Of a stretch of DNA of 64,000 nt, positions 25,261 through 53,166 are shown one piece after another. Every line of letters starts with the position of its first letter. Within the stretch, counting starts at the first letter, position 1. Source of the stretch: Escherichia phage UGJNEcP1; the sequence record OV754623; one strand, given 5' to 3'. A program made the translations under genes and the position numbers. The notes under the pieces were generated by a model, which was given only the letters and a program-made list of their open reading frames with translations, made no database searches and had not been told where the DNA came from.

Positions 25261-26361
25261 TTACGCTGTGAAGATTTTATCCCACATCGCAACAACTGCA
25301 TCTCGGTTATACTTCTTCCATACTGCTTCAGCACGTTTAACTCGAGCTTCGTATGTGTCAGTGAATTCTAATACAGCTTTTGTGTAAAGCGCAACTACTT
25401 CTTTCTTAGGAGTAGAGGAATCAATTTCTACACGCACAGTATCTGGGTCGTATTCGAATGTCGCATGAGGATAATCCTTAAAAACTAACTGGATTACAGG
25501 GACACCTTTAGAGATGGCTTCAATAGAACTATTCTCTACAGTACCTGTGTCAGGACACGTATTAATAAGTGCTTTAGCTGTTTTAAGACGTTCCATAATT
25601 TCACTGTGTGGAGCATCAATAATAACAGGATATTTAGCTGGTGGCGCCCATTTGCTTGGACAGTATCCTGCACCATTTTCGCCTAGTGCTTTAATCGCTT
25701 CAAGAGCAACATCAGTACGACGCATTTTAGTGTCATAACGTTGTGCACTAATAATCAGATCCGTCGCCGGAAGAACTTCTGGCTTTTCAGTCAAACAAAT
25801 AACCGGATAATCTTCGGCTTCAAACAACGGATTTGCTCGCCAATAATCATAATCAATTTTGTCAGTCAGACCTGAAGTCATATAACAATATTTGCGTTCA
25901 AATTCACGGAAGGCTTTAGTAGGAGCATAACTCTTACCACCATTCTTATGAATTTGAATAGTCTGGTCCCAAATTTGAACAATGCCACGAGATACCGGTT
26001 CAAATGGTGTTGCCATAAAATTCTTATGAACTTTAGAGAGACCTGCGTCTTTAATTGCCTGAACGGTTAGTTTAGTCGGTTCCATAGTAACAACAAAATC
26101 GTATTCATGGATGCCGGCTAGTTCAACAATCTTACGAGCCATAGTATAACTCATACCTAGACTGAATTTAGTCAGATGACCAACAGGATGATGATTAACT
26201 TTCCAATCACCAAATGTGTCATTATCAAAACCGATATAATCAATATCAGCACCGATGGACACAAGATATTTCAACACGTTCAAATGAACCGCTTCAAGAC
26301 CACCTTGTACACGGTCAGGATTAAATGGGACTGCACGAGATGGGATAAACATAACTTTCAT
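25261..26361 (-). CDS. putative GT4-like GT-B glycosyltransferase; candidate DNA sugar transferase
   Basis: 366 aa; N-terminal RVQGGLEAVHLNVLKYLVSIG resembles the GT4 GG.E..V..L...L...G motif; C-terminal TGTVENSSIEAISKGVPVIQ resembles the GT4 EGFG...EAMA.G.PVI donor-binding motif. Confidence 0.65.
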   Translation of the reverse strand: MKVMFIPSRAVPFNPDRVQGGLEAVHLNVLKYLVSIGADIDYIGFDNDTFGDWKVNHHPVGHLTKFSLGMSYTMARKIVELAGIHEYDFVVTMEPTKLTVQAIKDAGLSKVHKNFMATPFEPVSRGIVQIWDQTIQIHKNGGKSYAPTKAFREFERKYCYMTSGLTDKIDYDYWRANPLFEAEDYPVICLTEKPEVLPATDLIISAQRYDTKMRRTDVALEAIKALGENGAGYCPSKWAPPAKYPVIIDAPHSEIMERLKTAKALINTCPDTGTVENSSIEAISKGVPVIQLVFKDYPHATFEYDPDTVRVEIDSSTPKKEVVALYTKAVLEFTDTYEARVKRAEAVWKKYNRDAVVAMWDKIFTA

Positions 26362-38020: not shown

Positions 38021-38557
38021 TCAGTAACCATTATCCTGACGTTCAAAGTTGTGTTGGTTTTTCAAGTAGTAAAGTTTAAAGATTTCTTCTGCAGTGAGTC
38101 CAAGACCCTGGAACATATTCAGAACAAAGTGGAGGATATCAATCATTTCAAATTTAATTTCAAGCTGGTCTTCAGGAGACAGTTCATCGATACGACGATT
38201 TCGATATTCAGCATGTTGTGCTTTCCAAGGCTTCCATACAGAGCTAGCGGCTTTTTCACCATTGCTCATACCACCGAGTGAAGTCAGCAGTTCACGGAAT
38301 TCATCATCAATATAATCTTTCTGATTACGCAGCCAATCAACAACATCACCAGCAGTGGCCAATTCATCAGGATGTTTGTTATGTTCAGGCTTGTCATTTG
38401 CCAGACGAACCTGTAAAGATTTCTGCATATCAAGCATTACCTGCAGTGGGTCTTTATCTTCGTGAATCAGAGCATTAAAATAAGCTTCTTCCGCTTTATC
38501 AACACCAGAAATAAGTTGTGAACATTCGTTAAAGTGTGCCATTATTTTTCCTTTCAA
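38021..38557 (-). CDS. 56: dCTPase/dUTPase gp56 candidate (all-alpha NTP pyrophosphatase)
   Basis: 178 aa (T4 gp56 171 aa); acidic E..E....E..D-like pattern; synteny between soc and 61. Confidence 0.55.
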   Translation of the reverse strand: MKGKIMAHFNECSQLISGVDKAEEAYFNALIHEDKDPLQVMLDMQKSLQVRLANDKPEHNKHPDELATAGDVVDWLRNQKDYIDDEFRELLTSLGGMSNGEKAASSVWKPWKAQHAEYRNRRIDELSPEDQLEIKFEMIDILHFVLNMFQGLGLTAEEIFKLYYLKNQHNFERQDNGY

Positions 38558-46615: not shown

Positions 46616-47164
46616 TTAACGAGCCCATTTAATGATTTCTGTAATCAAATTATTACGTTCGCTTGCATTAAATCCTATAACTTTGTTAGAACCATCATGA
46701 TTAAGTAATTGATACGTTTGGATTTTGTTATGAATTGCAAACTCTTCAAAATGTGAAATGACTGTATTAAAACCGAATGAAGACAAAGTAATAAGGTCGT
46801 CTTCAAAACTTTCAGTCATTTCGTTACGTGTTAAAATAATTGTGAACACATCATGGTTTTGGCAAAGACGAACATAATCCTGTTCATAAACGTCAAGAAC
46901 CGAGTCCGCATCTTGTCGAATACGTCCATAAACCCAGTTACTAATATATCCACGGTCTAATAGATAAATCTTAGTAGGGTCTAAATAATTCAACATCGTT
47001 TCGAAACAGCCAACTTCATTTCGAGACTTAACATCGAAACGCCCATCAACTGTTCGTTTAGGGAAATCAATCTTTACATATCTTTCACTAATTTCCATTA
47101 TATCATTAATGAAAGTTGTTTTACCAGCATTATCCGGCCCGTCTACTAAAATAATTTTAGCCAT
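46616..47164 (-). CDS. P-loop kinase (thymidylate/deoxynucleoside-kinase-like fold)
   Basis: 182 aa; Walker A GPDNAGKTT and downstream LLDRGY (DR motif); occupies part of the T4 beta-gt slot. Confidence 0.6.
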   Translation of the reverse strand: MAKIILVDGPDNAGKTTFINDIMEISERYVKIDFPKRTVDGRFDVKSRNEVGCFETMLNYLDPTKIYLLDRGYISNWVYGRIRQDADSVLDVYEQDYVRLCQNHDVFTIILTRNEMTESFEDDLITLSSFGFNTVISHFEEFAIHNKIQTYQLLNHDGSNKVIGFNASERNNLITEIIKWAR

Positions 47165-47165
47165 T

Positions 47166-48065
47166 TTATTCCTCGATTACGACATCTTCGTATTTAGGTA
47201 TATTATACGGTGAAGAAATTAAAGCATTAAAGTAGATGAACTCACCAAGACCTGGATGGAATACTTCTTCAGGATTTTCGAAATATTGAATCTTCGGACG
47301 TCCTTTAAGAATTTGATAGTACTCAGTTTTAGTTGGATTAAAAATTCGAATCAGCGCTTCTTCAGGATACTTATTTCTGTCGAAACTATTATTTGGATCA
47401 GTTATATAAAGCGGTTGACCTAATTGAATTGCGCATTCAACCACTTGTTCAAAACGATAGCATGGGTCACTAATTCGAAATGGATGAAAAATACCATCTA
47501 GATGAATAGGAGCCAAATCACCTACAAGACGCTGCATGACGGAAGGACGTATAACTTTCTGCGTTACGATAATCTTATTACCATCTGCACCTGCGTTAAC
47601 CAGCACTTCTTTTTGACGTTCATTCAACATAGTAGTTTGAAGTGAACGATTAACAGACAACATGTCGGTTTTTAAGAATTCATCAATATAAAAACGTGGT
47701 TTATTAGGGTCTGCAGTGATATTGAAATTGAATTCTACATCAAAAGCGCCGTCATATCCAGTGATATCTGTGATTAGAAAATCACAATCATAATAAGCAA
47801 TTAATGAATCAACCACAAATTCATTTTCAGACCAAAAATATTTACGAGTGTTATACGCGTTATCTTTATACCATAATGGAACAAACTTAAATTCTGGGAA
47901 AAGACGTTCACATTCTTTAATATCAGATGCATTACGTGGATATGTAATCACATCACCCGGATTAGCACGGTGCAAATGAAGTTGGAAGTTGCCATCCTTA
48001 AGGATAGCATACTGTCCAGTTTCATAAGACCGCATACTCAAGATAGGTACGCGGAAAATAGCCAT
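47166..48065 (-). CDS. hypothetical protein in the beta-gt slot (candidate transferase)
   Basis: 299 aa; no confident motif; positional replacement of T4 beta-glucosyltransferase; stop/start abutting neighbours. Confidence 0.5.
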   Translation of the reverse strand: MAIFRVPILSMRSYETGQYAILKDGNFQLHLHRANPGDVITYPRNASDIKECERLFPEFKFVPLWYKDNAYNTRKYFWSENEFVVDSLIAYYDCDFLITDITGYDGAFDVEFNFNITADPNKPRFYIDEFLKTDMLSVNRSLQTTMLNERQKEVLVNAGADGNKIIVTQKVIRPSVMQRLVGDLAPIHLDGIFHPFRISDPCYRFEQVVECAIQLGQPLYITDPNNSFDRNKYPEEALIRIFNPTKTEYYQILKGRPKIQYFENPEEVFHPGLGEFIYFNALISSPYNIPKYEDVVIEE

Positions 48066-48781
48066 TAGTCAAGGAATCCTTTAACATAATCAAAATCACG
48101 TTCAAACACATGGGCACTTACCATGGTATGAGTATAATCACCAACTTCTACACCACATTCGTTAGCGATATAATGAAGTAATTTTCCTTGGAGATAAAAA
48201 TCCAACTGCATAACAACAGCACAGTTCTGGGAACGCATATGACAGTGGGTATAAAGCTTACCATCACGAATATAATAAGTCACTGAGTCAGTACATGGAT
48301 ATTCAAGCGTTTCGTCCGAATCAAGCAAAGCCTGATCAGAACTTTCTAGAATTTGGAACACAACTCTTCGGGAGTTAGGCTTCTCTTTAAGTTCTTTTAG
48401 AAGAGCTGGTAATTGAGCCGCAATGCGAGGGCCATAGAAAGTGTTGAAGTTCGCCGGCAAAACATCTGATTTTGGTTTAGAAATAAATTTAGCGACATTA
48501 GGATATGCCTTAAACGCTTCTTCTGCGTTGGTACCACCAGAAATCATAAACTTCCAGAAGTCTTCGGCATATTCATAAGAGATGCGGTTAATACGTGGGT
48601 CGGTCATTTTGAATGATGATGGAGTGTCAACAACCACTGTCATAGACCCAATTTCATTACAACGTCCAATACGAGAATCAGTTACGAATTCCGGGTTTTC
48701 TAAAATTTCACGATTGACTGCTTTAAATGCGGCTTGAAAATCTGCGGCTTTGATATATTTCATTGTGTTATGTTTTCCCAT
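48065..48781 (-). CDS. 42: thymidylate-synthase-fold pyrimidine C5-modifying enzyme, probable dCMP hydroxymethylase gp42
   Basis: 238 aa; YPCTDSVTYYIRDGKLYTHCHMRSQN has the catalytic-Cys and R/S motifs of the TS/dCMP-hydroxymethylase fold; synteny. Confidence 0.65.
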   Translation of the reverse strand: MGKHNTMKYIKAADFQAAFKAVNREILENPEFVTDSRIGRCNEIGSMTVVVDTPSSFKMTDPRINRISYEYAEDFWKFMISGGTNAEEAFKAYPNVAKFISKPKSDVLPANFNTFYGPRIAAQLPALLKELKEKPNSRRVVFQILESSDQALLDSDETLEYPCTDSVTYYIRDGKLYTHCHMRSQNCAVVMQLDFYLQGKLLHYIANECGVEVGDYTHTMVSAHVFERDFDYVKGFLD

Positions 48782-48823
48782 GTTTACCTCAATACAATTT
48801 ATTATATACTCAATTCGTAAAGC

Positions 48824-49063
48824 TTATTTGAATTTCTTGACAATGTTGATATAACGTAAAGCTTCAGCATCGATACTTCCAAGAACACTATGAAGAAATG
48901 CATCAGCGTAATATTCTAGTTGAACAGGTTCTTTAATCACTTTAGCCGCTTTAGTTTCAAACAGGCCCATCAGGGCCTTTTTAAGAATTTGTTCGTTAGT
49001 GTTCAGTTTAATAGTCAAAATCTCTTCGTTAAGTTGGTGGTTAAAAGTTTTTCTAGAAATCAT
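48824..49063 (-). CDS. hypothetical small protein
   Basis: 79-aa ORF with ATGA-type overlap with the upstream gene. Confidence 0.45.
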   Translation of the reverse strand: MISRKTFNHQLNEEILTIKLNTNEQILKKALMGLFETKAAKVIKEPVQLEYYADAFLHSVLGSIDAEALRYINIVKKFK

Positions 49064-50220
49064 TCCGGGTACCTCAAAGCGTCATCAGAGTTAGTTATAT
49101 CAATAATAGATATAGAGTTTTCTGCTAACCCGTTTTTAGATAATTGACGTTTATAATATCTTTCACAATATGTACACGTCGTCCCGCAGATTTCATTAGC
49201 ACAATCGAAATCTGGATGTCTGAACCACCTTTTTTCTAAAAAGCCATCTAACAAAGAGGTTTCAATATTTACTGTATGTGAAAACTCAGTTTCGTTTTCA
49301 AGAGTGAAAATAGTCTCTAAAGGCTTCCACAGTTCTAACAAATTACCTTCAAACTTTTCAGAAGCGTATGCTTCAAGAACTTTCAAAATGTAGTCTGTGC
49401 TACCTGTACGTCCTGAAACTTTGAATTGAGTGATACCAATATCATTATAAAGTTTCAAATCTTGAGGACGAACAAAACGAGTTCTCAACCAGTTAAATGG
49501 GTCTGTATCACGAGCTTTAATACAGTGCTGCATAGGATATCCGTTTAAGGATTTAGCATCATCGGCTGTAACATCAGTACTATGGAAAATATAGCAAGAG
49601 TCACGATAGCTACAATGTGTTGTATACCCTTTACCAGCATTAGAACAGAACTCATTTACAAGAACTTCAAATATTATATTGTTCTTATTGCAAAACTCTG
49701 CTGCACGCTTCAGGAAAGAAACTGAACGGTTCTTATGAATTCCACAGCAGACCTTTTTGATATTATATTGGTCATGCAAGTATTTGATTTGAGTTACAGC
49801 ATCGACATGTAGAATTGTTGAAACTTCAATCTCAATGTCTTTATTGACTTCACGAACAATTTCCATAACAACAGGGTTAGCGATAGTAATACGCCATACG
49901 CCTATTGACCAAAGATACTGAACATAATCCTGAATAGCTTTCTTCTTCCACTCAACTAGTTCTCTTTTTGAACCAGGATTTATCGTGTTGAGTGTATAGT
50001 TAAAGCAAATACCTAATTCGTTACAACGTTTAACGTAATCTTCTAACATCTTTTTGTCAACGTCAGGAAGCCTAAAATCAGGTCTGGCTGCTACAAAAGC
50101 CATTTCTCTTGTAGAGCCGTATACTTCATTTATCAAGCTATTAGGATAAGTTTTATTGAGCTCTACGATTTTATCAAGAAGAGCTAAATCAAAATTCGTT
50201 CCGATTTTAAAAGTATTCAT
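49060..50220 (-). CDS. U32-family (collagenase-like / Fe-S hydroxylase-like) enzyme candidate
   Basis: 386 aa; NYTLNTIN and VLVNEFCSNAGKGYTTHCSY resemble U32 TIM-barrel motifs (partial match to the E.F..G..C....G.C..S signature); C-terminal C-x4-C-x3-C-x2-C cluster. Confidence 0.45.
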   Translation of the reverse strand: MNTFKIGTNFDLALLDKIVELNKTYPNSLINEVYGSTREMAFVAARPDFRLPDVDKKMLEDYVKRCNELGICFNYTLNTINPGSKRELVEWKKKAIQDYVQYLWSIGVWRITIANPVVMEIVREVNKDIEIEVSTILHVDAVTQIKYLHDQYNIKKVCCGIHKNRSVSFLKRAAEFCNKNNIIFEVLVNEFCSNAGKGYTTHCSYRDSCYIFHSTDVTADDAKSLNGYPMQHCIKARDTDPFNWLRTRFVRPQDLKLYNDIGITQFKVSGRTGSTDYILKVLEAYASEKFEGNLLELWKPLETIFTLENETEFSHTVNIETSLLDGFLEKRWFRHPDFDCANEICGTTCTYCERYYKRQLSKNGLAENSISIIDITNSDDALRYPE

Positions 50221-50274: not shown

Positions 50275-50679
50275 TTATTGTAGATTCGGTTTATATGATT
50301 TAAATGTTTCGAATTCGCCTTTATTCATAAGAGCTTTGAATTCGTCAGGACGCATAGCTTTGTCGTCGATAATCCAATCATATACTGGTTTATGTGTTAG
50401 CAAATTATGGTACTTCAAGCCAATGTTTGCCAAGTTCTGAATCAGACTTGGGAGAATGTCAATTGCTATACGACCAGGACCTACTGACTTCATACCGCGA
50501 GCAGTGTAAAGCGTTATGGTATGCCCTGCATCATACAGGGCATTAATGGCAGACACCATTTCGACGTCTGGTTTGAAGTTCACGTAATCACGATTGTTAT
50601 TCCACTCTGTTATACAATCATCGACATCAAAACAAAGATTAAGCATGTTTTCTACACGGTGCATTAGATTCGTTCCCAT
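50275..50679 (-). CDS. HAD-superfamily phosphatase-like protein
   Basis: 134 aa; LCFDVDDCIT (DxD motif I), TLYTARG (motif II), IIDDK (motif IV). Confidence 0.55.
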   Translation of the reverse strand: MGTNLMHRVENMLNLCFDVDDCITEWNNNRDYVNFKPDVEMVSAINALYDAGHTITLYTARGMKSVGPGRIAIDILPSLIQNLANIGLKYHNLLTHKPVYDWIIDDKAMRPDEFKALMNKGEFETFKSYKPNLQ

Positions 50680-52349
50680 TGATGAGTGATATCGCCACCG
50701 ATTGGACGATAAGAAACACCAGTTTCTTTATCAGTTAGTACCCATTTACCAGGATTTTTTGTAATCAGAGTAGCCGTTACAGGCTCTGCTACGTCATAAC
50801 TAATAGAGCCGTCTTGAAGTACACGGCCCATGTTACGTAATTGCTTAGTCAGAAGTTCCATACCTTTATAATATGCGGCTACCGCTTTAAGTGGATTATT
50901 CTTGAAATAACCACCTAATGCAATCCAGATAATTGCCACCGCCAAATGATGATACTCGTTAAACGAACTCATCTTTCCATATTTGTAAATTAATGGATTG
51001 ATGTTAATAGTCACATTACAAGTTGTTTCATCAATAGTAAACTGTCCCCAGGTCGGATTAGCATTGAATTCATCATAACCTGAAACAGCATAAAGCACTT
51101 TAGCTTCATCGTACAATTTTGGCCCGTAAATCTTGGTTTCGCCAAAATATCCACGAGGGTCGATAAACTTGACTTCGCCGTTATCAGTAATCATAGTATT
51201 ACTGAAGTTCGGGTCACCGTGAATAACAGAGTACTGTCCCTGAGAACGGTTATGATAACGAATAAGGTGTTCTAAAGCTTGTTTCAGCATTGGCTTCAGA
51301 CGTCCAATCTTAGTGTAGTTCACGTGTGTGATTTTACCAAATGAATCAATCAATGGTTGAATGCTTTCACAACGATCAATAACTTTCGTATAGAATTCTT
51401 TAGTGAAATCACGACGAACAGTTTCAGGACTTACAAAATAAGTGTCTGTGCTGAATTTCAGTGCATCTAAAATTGCATCAACAATTTGTGGACGAGCAAG
51501 ACTTGATTTGGATTTAATATATTCAAATGCCGGCTTACCTTTAATGCGTTCCATTTCAAAGTTATTTTCATTAACAGAAACTAACTGAGGAACTGAATCT
51601 GATTTCACTTTAAGATACCATGAAATCTCATCTTTCTGAAGAGCTCGGCCCTGTTCGGTTAATGCGAATTTAGTTACAGTTTCTTCACCAATTTCAACTG
51701 CATTAAAACTACGATTAAGTTCACGAACTTCATGAGCCTTTTCAAGTTTAGGCATATCACCTAAATCAATTAGATTCATAAGCTCTGATTTATTGAATGC
51801 ACTCCCGTAAAGGAATTCTACAAAATCACGTCCTTTGCAATATTCGTGAATTTCCTCATCAGTAGAACCCATGTAGAATTCCCAGTCTTTGAACTGATAA
51901 ATTCCTACAACATTACCACCTGTTGAACCTACGTTAGTGATATTTTCACCGTCGAAATTATATCGACATTCGTCACCCTTAACATAGATTGCGTTAACAT
52001 TCCAAGACCATGAACCAAAATCAGGAATAATATCACACCAGTTAACAATTACGTTATGGCCGTCTAAATCTTTGTGTAATTTAGCAAGAGCATAAGCAGA
52101 ACCATACGCTTCATCAACTGTACGAATAGTCACATTGAACCCTTCTTGCTCACAATAAGCTCGAACAGTTTCAGCAAATTTTGAATGAACTACTACAATA
52201 ATTTCATCTGCGCCAAGGTCAGAATAAATTGTATACAAATTGCTCAGAATAGTGTCTTGTTTATAGTTAACAAGCACCTTAGGAATATGATGCGTTATTG
52301 GATACAAACGAGTTGCCAGTCCAGCACCAAGAATAACAGCTTTTTTCAT
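50664..52349 (-). CDS. bifunctional sugar-1-phosphate nucleotidyltransferase / APH-like sugar kinase
   Basis: 561 aa; N-terminal MKKAVILGAGLATRLYPITHHIPKVLV (nucleotidyltransferase G-loop); C-terminal VIHGDPNFSNTMI...FIDPRGYFGE (HGD...N and ID motifs of the aminoglycoside/choline-kinase fold). Confidence 0.75.
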   Translation of the reverse strand: MKKAVILGAGLATRLYPITHHIPKVLVNYKQDTILSNLYTIYSDLGADEIIVVVHSKFAETVRAYCEQEGFNVTIRTVDEAYGSAYALAKLHKDLDGHNVIVNWCDIIPDFGSWSWNVNAIYVKGDECRYNFDGENITNVGSTGGNVVGIYQFKDWEFYMGSTDEEIHEYCKGRDFVEFLYGSAFNKSELMNLIDLGDMPKLEKAHEVRELNRSFNAVEIGEETVTKFALTEQGRALQKDEISWYLKVKSDSVPQLVSVNENNFEMERIKGKPAFEYIKSKSSLARPQIVDAILDALKFSTDTYFVSPETVRRDFTKEFYTKVIDRCESIQPLIDSFGKITHVNYTKIGRLKPMLKQALEHLIRYHNRSQGQYSVIHGDPNFSNTMITDNGEVKFIDPRGYFGETKIYGPKLYDEAKVLYAVSGYDEFNANPTWGQFTIDETTCNVTININPLIYKYGKMSSFNEYHHLAVAIIWIALGGYFKNNPLKAVAAYYKGMELLTKQLRNMGRVLQDGSISYDVAEPVTATLITKNPGKWVLTDKETGVSYRPIGGDITHQWERI

Positions 52350-52390: not shown

Positions 52391-52534
52391 CTAGTTAAAG
52401 CATTCATACTTTGCTTGTAGTCCAATCATAATCCATCCGATTATAAGAGTCGGAATCATTACCGGAGCCGTTAAGCTCCAGTAGATAGTCATGACAAGCA
52501 TCAATAGTAAAAGTCCTATTGTTATTGCTTTCAT
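52391..52534 (-). CDS. small hydrophobic peptide
   Basis: 47-aa ORF MKAITIGLLLLMLVMTIYWSL...; ATGA overlap with the SIS gene stop; below track cutoff. Confidence 0.3.
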   Translation of the reverse strand: MKAITIGLLLLMLVMTIYWSLTAPVMIPTLIIGWIMIGLQAKYECFN

Positions 52535-53166
52535 TGTTCGCCTCGTAACATGGCACCTAGTGCACCGCCTGGATGGAACTTAAGGAAGTCATTAGAGGTA
52601 AATCCACGTTCAGACGAAAGGTTGATAGCAAACGTATCGATAAGCGCTAACAACAATGTAGTGGACATAGTCGGAGCCAGAGAATTCTCATCAACCTCTA
52701 CCGCGATGCCTGTACAGAAAGAGTAATCAAAAAGGGCTTCATTTTCTTGCGGAATGTCTGGGTTACAATGCAACAGAATCTGTTTGACGTTCGGTCGAAT
52801 CATTTTAAGATGCTTAGCCACGCCTATCATTTCTTCAGTTTTACCAGAACGACTAATATGAATCAACACATCATTAGGCGCAATGAATCCTGCGTCACCG
52901 TGAGAATAATGTCCAGTGTTCAAGTACATACTCGGGATACCGAGTGAAGCAAATGTCTCAGAAGCTTTAGTTGCAATATTAGCATTCTTACCAACACCTG
53001 TAATAATTACTCGGCTTTCATAATTACTAAGTCCAGGGCGTCGAAGAGTTTCTAGAATAGCATTATAACGAGCAGGGTTTTGACTAATTACTTTGGCCAT
53101 AGCGGCCAAAGAAGAAGCTTGTTTTATGATTGCGTCAATAGCGATAGTAATAGGAGTAGTTTTCAT
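52531..53166 (-). CDS. SIS-domain sugar-phosphate isomerase (arabinose-5-phosphate isomerase / GmhA-like)
   Basis: 211 aa; ITGVGKNANIA and HISRSGKTEE are canonical SIS phosphosugar-binding motifs; no CBS domains. Confidence 0.75.
   Translation of the reverse strand: MKTTPITIAIDAIIKQASSLAAMAKVISQNPARYNAILETLRRPGLSNYESRVIITGVGKNANIATKASETFASLGIPSMYLNTGHYSHGDAGFIAPNDVLIHISRSGKTEEMIGVAKHLKMIRPNVKQILLHCNPDIPQENEALFDYSFCTGIAVEVDENSLAPTMSTTLLLALIDTFAINLSSERGFTSNDFLKFHPGGALGAMLRGEQ

Follow-up and report, generated by a model that had tools for sequence, protein, structure and literature searches.

What does an enzyme of the thymidylate synthase (TS) fold, encoded where phage T4 carries gene 42, place on C5 of cytosine? 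The question is raised by a stretch of 64,000 nucleotides from Escherichia phage UGJNEcP1 (sequence record OV754623), here called the window, in which a minus-strand open reading frame (ORF) running from 48781 to 48065 encodes a protein of 238 amino acids. A preliminary description, made from the sequence alone, had suspected that this protein might depart from the canonical formation of 5-hydroxymethylcytosine (hmC), and had left it between a hydroxymethylase and some other C5-transferase. Our analyses indicate that the ORF very probably encodes a 5-hydroxy-dCMP synthase (dCMP, deoxycytidine monophosphate), that is, a protein with the TS fold that would use flavin and O2 for a hydroxylation, in place of folate one-carbon chemistry. 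This function was published in 2026 for orthologs of the protein, and is no discovery of ours. A neighbouring gene, the second one upstream, encodes the U32-family protein gp50 and leads to a newer hypothesis that we develop further below.

The ORF is a well-formed gene. Its ATG at 48781 has a GAGG ribosome-binding site 5 nucleotides upstream, and its TAA stop shares bases with the overlapping ATG of the next gene, the arabinosyltransferase Aat1 (TAATG). The protein matches the Pfam family Thymidylat_synt (PF00303) with an E-value of 2.3e-15 and 56.9 bits (cut-off 24.3). The catalytic Cys and the Arg/Ser motifs reported at first reading are borne out by alignment with Escherichia coli ThyA: C163 corresponds to the TS-family catalytic C146, the phosphate-binding pair R138/R139 to R126/R127, and R183-S184 to R166-S167, within a motif that reads R183-S184-Q185-N186. 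H224 is likewise present. The signature published for 5-hydroxy-dCMP synthases is complete, with E160 (L143E in ThyA numbering), C163, N186 (D169N) and D194 (N177D). A single-sequence AlphaFold model gave a predicted local distance difference test score (pLDDT) of 36 and was set aside; a solved structure exists for the 98% identical ortholog of phage HY126.

The gene lies between uvsX and gene 43 (DNA polymerase), like T4 gene 42, so the position first given to it is right. The same holds for the claim that both flanks are unlike those of T4. The T4 interval from uvsX to gene 43 holds segA, beta-gt, 42, imm and imm.1. No counterpart is found there of the downstream neighbours (a Tmk-like kinase and a glycosyltransferase), nor of the upstream ones (a 79-residue ORF, the U32 protein, a HAD phosphatase, a kinase/nucleotidyltransferase and an arabinose-5-phosphate isomerase).

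The similarity to T4 gp42 had been left for checking; had it been high throughout, with the residues that set the substrate included, the suspicion would have been refuted. It is far from high. By BLASTP the two proteins share 25% identity over 218 residues (E 3e-13), and a search of the PDB with T4 gp42 reaches 9IQC, the HY126 structure, only at an E-value of 3.8e-6, below several ThyA entries. We aligned E. coli ThyA (its sequence verified against the PDB), T4 gp42 and two further hydroxymethylases, and the window protein with six relatives. The cytosine-selecting D194 corresponds to T4 D179, at the N177D position of ThyA. The position of ThyA D169 is Asp in the hydroxymethylases of T4, STP4-a and avDM1 (RSND) and Asn in the window protein (RSQN). 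All members of its clade in the alignment read RSQN, with E160, C163 and D194 in place, and pairwise alignments by HMMER and BLAST concur.

Could the protein nevertheless be a divergent but working T4-type dCMP hydroxymethylase, dependent on folate, that makes 5-hydroxymethyl-dCMP and gives DNA with arabinosyl-hmC? It holds the genomic place of T4 gene 42, shares with gp42 the TS fold, the catalytic Cys and the cytosine-selecting Asp, and has relatives whose GenBank records read 'deoxycytidylate 5-hydroxymethyltransferase'; arabinosyl-hmC is also said to have been proposed in the older RB69 literature. The mere 25% identity and the Asn where T4-type enzymes keep Asp argue otherwise. So does direct experiment: tested in the same assay, the 99% identical gp48 of RB69 yielded 5-hydroxydeoxycytidine (5hodC) and T4 gp42 yielded 5-hydroxymethyl-deoxycytidine (PMC13326640). 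We therefore consider a hydroxymethylase highly unlikely.

The evidence that carries the assignment to 5-hydroxy-dCMP synthase comes from these close orthologs. The window protein is identical to RB69 gp48 (RB69ORF048c) at 235 of 238 positions, and to the HY126 ortholog at 233 of 238; PDB entries 9IQC and 9IR2 have exactly the sequence of the latter. The three differences from the former and the five from the crystallised enzyme (residues 17, 31, 85, 87 and 107) all fall outside the signature positions. RB69 DNA contains 5-hydroxycytosine in mono- and poly-arabinosylated forms, in which a direct ether bond joins the sugar to C5 (Lee et al., NAR 2026, PMC13326640). Expressed in E. coli together with a phage deoxynucleoside monophosphate (dNMP) kinase, gp48 led to 5hodC in DNA, which was matched to an authentic standard; labelling with 18O2 gave a +2 Da product, so that the oxygen comes from O2; and the purified protein is yellow and releases a flavin like flavin mononucleotide, FMN (PMC13326640). 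He et al. (Nat Chem Biol 2026), as cited in PMC13326640, saw a flavin in the crystal structure of the HY126 enzyme, and also reconstituted the reaction in vitro. The base-modification step would thus differ from hmC formation, because gp48, with 235 of 238 residues identical, makes 5-hydroxy-dCMP and not 5-hydroxymethyl-dCMP, and the departure that was suspected at the outset proves well founded.

The product, the 18O2-derived oxygen, the bound flavin and the crystal structure have accordingly been shown for orthologs 98-99% identical; for the UGJNEcP1 protein itself we infer the product, the O2 oxygen and the flavin by orthology. The details of the flavin chemistry and a covalent role for Cys163 are likewise presumed. 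The diagnostic feature of 5-hydroxy-dCMP synthases is Asn at ThyA D169, together with N177D for cytosine selection and L143E, and nine further homologs with the D169N signature all yielded 5hodC (PMC13326640). These nine, and the product identified directly for the 99% identical gp48, also bear on the idea that another one-carbon or other group is transferred to C5 of dCMP, such as the methyl group that some phages have in 5-methyl-deoxycytidine. Phage TS homologs have indeed diversified to several C5 products (PMC13326640), yet given the measured products we attach hardly any weight to this idea. Of the choice first posed, then, the doubt about a hydroxymethylase stands; the alternative to it appears to be a flavin- and O2-dependent hydroxylase like RB69 gp48, rather than another folate-dependent C5-transferase.

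Two further observations concern the distribution and linkage of the gene. Among 54 loci from IMG/VR with the clade motif, 51 read MRSQN, one MRSEN and one RSPN, and one protein is cut off; the scan pattern itself contained an MRSQN-type motif, so that this count is no independent test. In the window, Aat1 is translationally coupled downstream of the hydroxylase, and AfhE, AfhF, the isomerase and the second arabinosyltransferase, Aat2, are also encoded.

The window is an RB69-like Mosigvirus. Around the ORF, a stretch of 8 kb matches Escherichia phage UGJNEcP2 (OV877511.1) at 100% identity and phage RB69 at 98%, and the window as a whole is about 99.97% identical to UGJNEcP2. Positions 1-38000 differ from OV877511.1 by a handful of mismatches and two gaps, with a coordinate offset of 13 nucleotides before about 38 kb. 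The source of these differences is probably a sister isolate or another assembly version. All coordinates are in window numbering and were checked by translation, and statements about the whole genome rest on the UGJNEcP2 genome pieced together with the window.

In this combined genome there are two TS-fold genes only, the hydroxylase ORF and a canonical td outside the window, and we found no T4-type gp42: the best match of T4 gp42 is the hydroxylase ORF itself. This bears on whether the ORF could be a second thymidylate synthase, or an enzyme that modifies dUMP. 'Thymidylate synthase' is the label in UGJNEcP2 and in the PDB entries, and the best NCBIfam matches are TS models. However, these TS equivalog scores are all far under their cut-offs (for example, 68 bits where 174 are required, and 50 where 108 are), the uracil-selecting Asn177 of ThyA is replaced by Asp, and the near-identical UGJNEcP2 already has its td, 46% identical to E. 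coli ThyA. The chance that the ORF is a thymidylate synthase seems to us next to nil.

Some points weigh against the 5-hydroxy-dCMP synthase assignment. The function is known from orthologs, and the experiments were made on the proteins of other phages, which differ at 3 and 5 residues. RB69 DNA was reportedly described earlier, by Thomas et al. in 2018, as carrying arabosyl-hmC, not arabinosyl-5-hydroxycytosine; the 2026 papers supersede that report, though the two disagree. Furthermore, the flavin is loosely held in RB69 gp48 and the chemical mechanism is unsettled (PMC13326640).

All genes of the RB69 pathway are present in the genome, 94-100% identical to their RB69 counterparts (Table 1). 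The cluster is a tight array on one strand in which stops and starts overlap. From these genes the following route can be proposed. The gp56-type enzyme would convert dCTP to dCMP, which the hydroxylase would bind, with Asp194 selecting cytosine and Cys163 as the conserved TS-family nucleophile. A loosely bound FMN-like flavin and O2 would then serve to place a hydroxyl directly on C5. A gp1-type dNMP kinase, encoded outside the window, would phosphorylate the 5-hydroxy-dCMP for incorporation in place of C at replication. Finally, Aat1 and Aat2 would arabinosylate the C5 hydroxyl on DNA, with the donor, uridine diphosphate (UDP)-arabinofuranose, supplied by three enzymes of the same cluster: the isomerase, the AfhE-type kinase/pyrophosphorylase and the AfhF-type phosphatase.

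Table 1. Coordinates of the predicted hydroxylase and of other pathway and neighbouring genes in the window.
Feature	Position	Strand	Remarks
Predicted 5-hydroxy-dCMP synthase (dCMP C5-hydroxylase)	48065..48781	-	Ortholog of RB69 gp48 and HY126 XAN60475 (PDB 9IQC); TS fold
Aat1, arabinosyltransferase 1	47166..48065	-	Intact ORF of 299 residues; 98-99% identical to the RB69 46 and 47 pieces; role from PMC13326640
Tmk-like nucleotide kinase gp45	46616..47164	-	Ortholog of RB69 gp45, 98% identity; thymidylate-kinase-like, P-loop
gp49, 79 residues	48824..49063	-	Homologous to a 74-residue ORF of Serratia phage 92A1
U32-family protein gp50	49060..50220	-	Ortholog of RB69 gp50, 99.5% identity; 10 family-invariant Cys
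HAD-type phosphatase	50275..50679	-	RB69 gp51 / HY126 AfhF type; UDP-arabinofuranose synthesis
Bifunctional sugar kinase/nucleotidyltransferase	50664..52349	-	RB69 gp52:53, HY126 AfhE type; intact ORF of 561 residues
Arabinose-5-phosphate isomerase	52531..53166	-	SIS domain; 100% identical to RB69 gp55
Aat2, arabinosyltransferase 2	25261..26361	-	Ortholog of RB69p003, 99.5% identity; between rIIA and topoisomerase gene 39; role from PMC13326640
gp56-type dCTP pyrophosphatase	38021..38542	-	Removes dCTP, supplies dCMP; role from PMC13326640

Several details of the cluster deserve mention. Aat1 and the kinase/nucleotidyltransferase are single ORFs here, while the RB69 reference splits each of them (46/47 and 52/53). 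The difference fits with frameshift errors in the old RB69 sequence. The split state has been called a sequencing error (PMC13326640), and that statement is supported because both genes are intact in the window. The start codon of the HAD phosphatase is ambiguous (50679 or 50665). The gp45 kinase adjoins the hydroxylase/Aat1 pair in nearly all loci, environmental ones included; the phosphorylation of the 5hodC monophosphate has been assigned to the separate gp1-type kinase, not to gp45 (PMC13326640). Upstream of the hydroxylase start, at 48782-48830 on the minus strand, there is a TATAAT box with AAGCTTTA before it. The box and AAGCTTTA together resemble a T4 MotA-box middle promoter with imperfect spacing, and our sigma-70 scan did not flag the site. 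A scan of the arabinosylation cluster for consensus promoters and terminators gave nothing above chance.

Why is a U32-family gene found in this company? The characterized U32 proteins are prephenate-requiring, O2-independent hydroxylases (PMC5727448, PMC6599085, PMC10990095). RlhA makes 5-hydroxycytidine in 23S rRNA (PMC5727448), TrhP makes 5-hydroxyuridine in tRNA (PMC6599085), and prephenate serves UbiU/V as oxygen donor when they hydroxylate precursors of ubiquinone (PMC10990095). The gp50 protein has been listed merely as a possible 'sugar or heterocycle reductase' in PMC13326640, where U32, prephenate and chorismate are nowhere mentioned, and our full-text literature searches, whose coverage excluded He et al. 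(Nat Chem Biol 2026), returned no link between U32 or prephenate and these phages. We hypothesize that gp50 is a second hydroxylase, independent of O2 and dependent on prephenate, which would make a 5-hydroxypyrimidine handle and provide an anaerobic route to 5-hydroxycytosine beside the O2-dependent gp48. Its family, its pattern of Cys residues, its phage gene neighbours and its phyletic distribution suggest this, and we put the chances of the proposal at about even.

The gp50 protein matches Pfam Peptidase_U32 (PF01136) with 42 bits (cut-off 22.4), and a 34-sequence alignment of the gp50 family matches E. coli UbiU, UbiV, TrhP and RlhA with an hhalign probability of 96.2%. An AlphaFold (AF2) model has a pLDDT of 90.5, and its top PDB match is the U32 protein 5D88. 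The relationship is detected by profile methods only: pairwise BLASTP against UbiU and RlhA gave no significant similarity. Ten Cys are invariant across the gp50 family, and C203, C209 and C233 align with the UbiU 4Fe-4S ligands C169, C176 and C232. Against the hypothesis, the fourth UbiU ligand, C193, falls in an alignment gap; to judge from its conservation, the invariant C192, like other Cys of gp50, could substitute for it. Beyond the U32-core Cys, residues 340-352 hold a family-invariant C-terminal CX4CX3CX2C (C340, C345, C349 and C352), the last three Cys of which read CGTTCTYC, like the CX3CX2C of radical-SAM proteins. A second metal cluster may therefore be present.

A different reading is that gp50 is an RNA hydroxylase like TrhP or RlhA, members of the same family. 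The C-terminal extensions of these proteins are missing from gp50, and its steady neighbours are deoxynucleotide and DNA-glycosylation genes. For the anaerobic hydroxylase that we propose, the candidate substrates would be dCMP, dUMP or DNA. Prephenate as its oxygen donor is suggested by genomic linkage to chorismate mutase and to 3-deoxy-D-arabino-heptulosonate 7-phosphate (DAHP) synthase.

This linkage is seen at several levels. The U32 gene occurs in 221 phage records and DAHP synthase in 212, with nearly the same distribution over genera. UGJNEcP2, for example, encodes an AroFGH-type DAHP synthase adjoining the dCMP deaminase gene (OV877511.1, 26639-27631, locus L025), outside the window. 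Type II chorismate mutases (CM_2, E about 5e-10) are encoded in 51 phage records, from T4-like phages of Klebsiella, Serratia, Yersinia, Enterobacter, Edwardsiella, Erwinia, Shewanella and others, and in every locus examined the gene sits between the U32 gene and the TS-like hydroxylase (e.g. L015:5656-5901 and L016:3704-3961). The Mosigviruses, including the window, have no chorismate mutase gene.

Between the U32 gene and the hydroxylase the window carries gp49, whose start overlaps the U32 stop by 4 nucleotides (ATGA), and which may be a partner of the U32 protein. It contains no Cys. The gene is conserved in Serratia phage 92A1 and in several T4-like loci of IMG/VR, with the U32 gene on one side and that of chorismate mutase or the TS-like protein on the other. 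We rejected the idea that gp49 is a diverged chorismate mutase: it has no CM_2 match even at an E-value of 10 and no BLASTP similarity to phage chorismate mutases, and is a small conserved ORF in its own right.

A scan of IMG/VR gave 47 U32 loci. All 15 of the T4-like ones have an adjacent TS-like gene. About 30 others lie on unrelated viral contigs, in nucleotide or DNA-glycosylation modules, and the 10 kb on either side of the U32 gene contain no TS-family gene save for two exceptions, one a canonical ThyA and one a weak, truncated match at the end of the locus. Roughly two thirds of these U32-only loci have an Aat1-like glycosyltransferase close by, which in about 10 is directly upstream of the U32 gene or overlaps it. 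They often also contain AfhE-like and isomerase genes, a dCMP deaminase and a Bacillus subtilis-type DAHP synthase. This DAHP synthase is encoded at most about 1 kb away from the U32 gene, and three loci have it fused to a chorismate mutase domain. Could these proteins (DAHP_synth_1) be 3-deoxy-D-manno-octulosonate 8-phosphate (KDO-8-P) synthases that consume arabinose 5-phosphate? We rejected this possibility: they match the DAHP models with E-values of 1e-36 to 1e-70 and KDO8PS with 1e-7 to 1e-18, and three of them carry the fused chorismate mutase domains.

Two U32-only loci (L023:6028-9000 and L050:9010-11979) encode, in order, an Aat1-like glycosyltransferase, the U32 protein and a TET-associated glycosyltransferase (PF20691). 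The U32 gene in them takes the place that is held by a TET hydroxylase in other phages. In L023, the one locus where the Pfam domains of the neighbours were checked, there is no TET/JBP or TS-like gene.

The hosts of Acinetobacter phages and Pootjesviridae are aerobes, and the U32 gene is missing from the loci of these phages. It is also missing from the Dhakaviruses of E. coli, so that a strict rule by which phages of facultative anaerobes carry both hydroxylases had to be abandoned. The complete Dhakavirus IME341 (NC_055742.1, loci L129-L132) lacks U32, DAHP synthase, chorismate mutase, the anaerobic ribonucleotide reductase (NrdD, NrdG) and GrcA; of these, only chorismate mutase is also missing from UGJNEcP2. 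The Dhakavirus pattern is thus a co-absence of U32 with NrdD/NrdG/GrcA and DAHP synthase. IME341 may be confined to aerobic replication, or may rely on host functions. It has the TS-like hydroxylase, Aat1, AfhE and AfhF, and lacks the arabinose-5-phosphate isomerase and Aat2.

If gp50 acts as proposed, it would let these phages replace cytosine fully while they grow without oxygen in the gut, where the flavin/O2 enzyme would be of no use, with the phage DAHP synthase and chorismate mutase as auxiliary genes that feed it. The DNA-glycosylation pathway of many uncultivated phages would have the U32 enzyme, paired with an Aat1-like or TET-associated glycosyltransferase, as its sole hydroxylase. 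No earlier member of the U32 family would have had a part in DNA metabolism, so that gp50 would be the first. Its role would explain the presence of DAHP synthase in about 210 and of chorismate mutase in about 50 phage genome records, and would show how an O2-requiring DNA modification persists in anoxic habitats. It would also define a new module of hydroxylase and glycosyltransferase with which uncultivated phages, largely jumbo ones, could be searched for DNA hypermodifications.

The hydroxylase assignment, though potentially of less consequence than the gp50 proposal, sets right a widespread annotation. Public records of this gene read 'thymidylate synthase', 'dCMP hydroxymethylase' or 'hypothetical protein'. 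Researchers who work with Mosigviruses, for example in phage therapy or in studies of restriction and defence, should expect DNA that bears arabinosyl-5-hydroxycytosine, not glucosyl-hmC.

How does the locus compare with known systems? The closest known 5-hydroxy-dCMP synthases are RB69 gp48, the HY126 enzyme (PDB 9IQC/9IR2/9IQU) and gp80 of Acinetobacter phage DLP3. With the first two the window protein shares its length, the signature (L143E, C146, D169N, N177D) and the gene neighbourhood, and nothing of substance differs: there are 3-5 conservative substitutions, all outside the signature. T4 gp42 (PDB 1B49/1B5D/1B5E) has in common with it the TS fold, the catalytic Cys, the cytosine-selecting Asp, an acidic residue at ThyA L143, the place between uvsX and gene 43, and dCMP as substrate. 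They differ in the low identity and the D169 residue described above, and in chemistry: gp42 uses methylene-tetrahydrofolate and water, whereas the RB69 gp48-type enzyme uses flavin and O2. The T4 product carries CH2OH, whereas that of a 5-hydroxy-dCMP synthase carries OH, and the sugar is thus ether-linked straight to the ring. ThyA and the CMP hydroxymethylase MilA (PDB 5JNH/5B6D), the latter given as the top structural neighbour of RB69 gp48 (PMC13326640), share the fold and the phosphate-binding Arg/Ser residues (PDB matches with E-values of 1e-12 to 6e-11). They differ in substrate and cofactor, and the window protein lacks the C-terminal tail that closes over folate.

For gp50, the relevant systems are RlhA, TrhP, UbiU and UbiV, with which it shares the U32 domain; invariant Cys of its family align with three of the four 4Fe-4S ligands of UbiU. 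In contrast to these, it has no RNA-binding C-terminal extension, possesses the extra invariant CX4CX3CX2C, and has insignificant pairwise identity to them. A pairing of aerobic and anaerobic hydroxylases in these phages would parallel that of UbiI/H/F with UbiU/V, and of TrhO with TrhP, in E. coli. RlhA and TrhP hydroxylate C5 of cytidine and uridine, respectively, which is the same chemistry that we propose for gp50.

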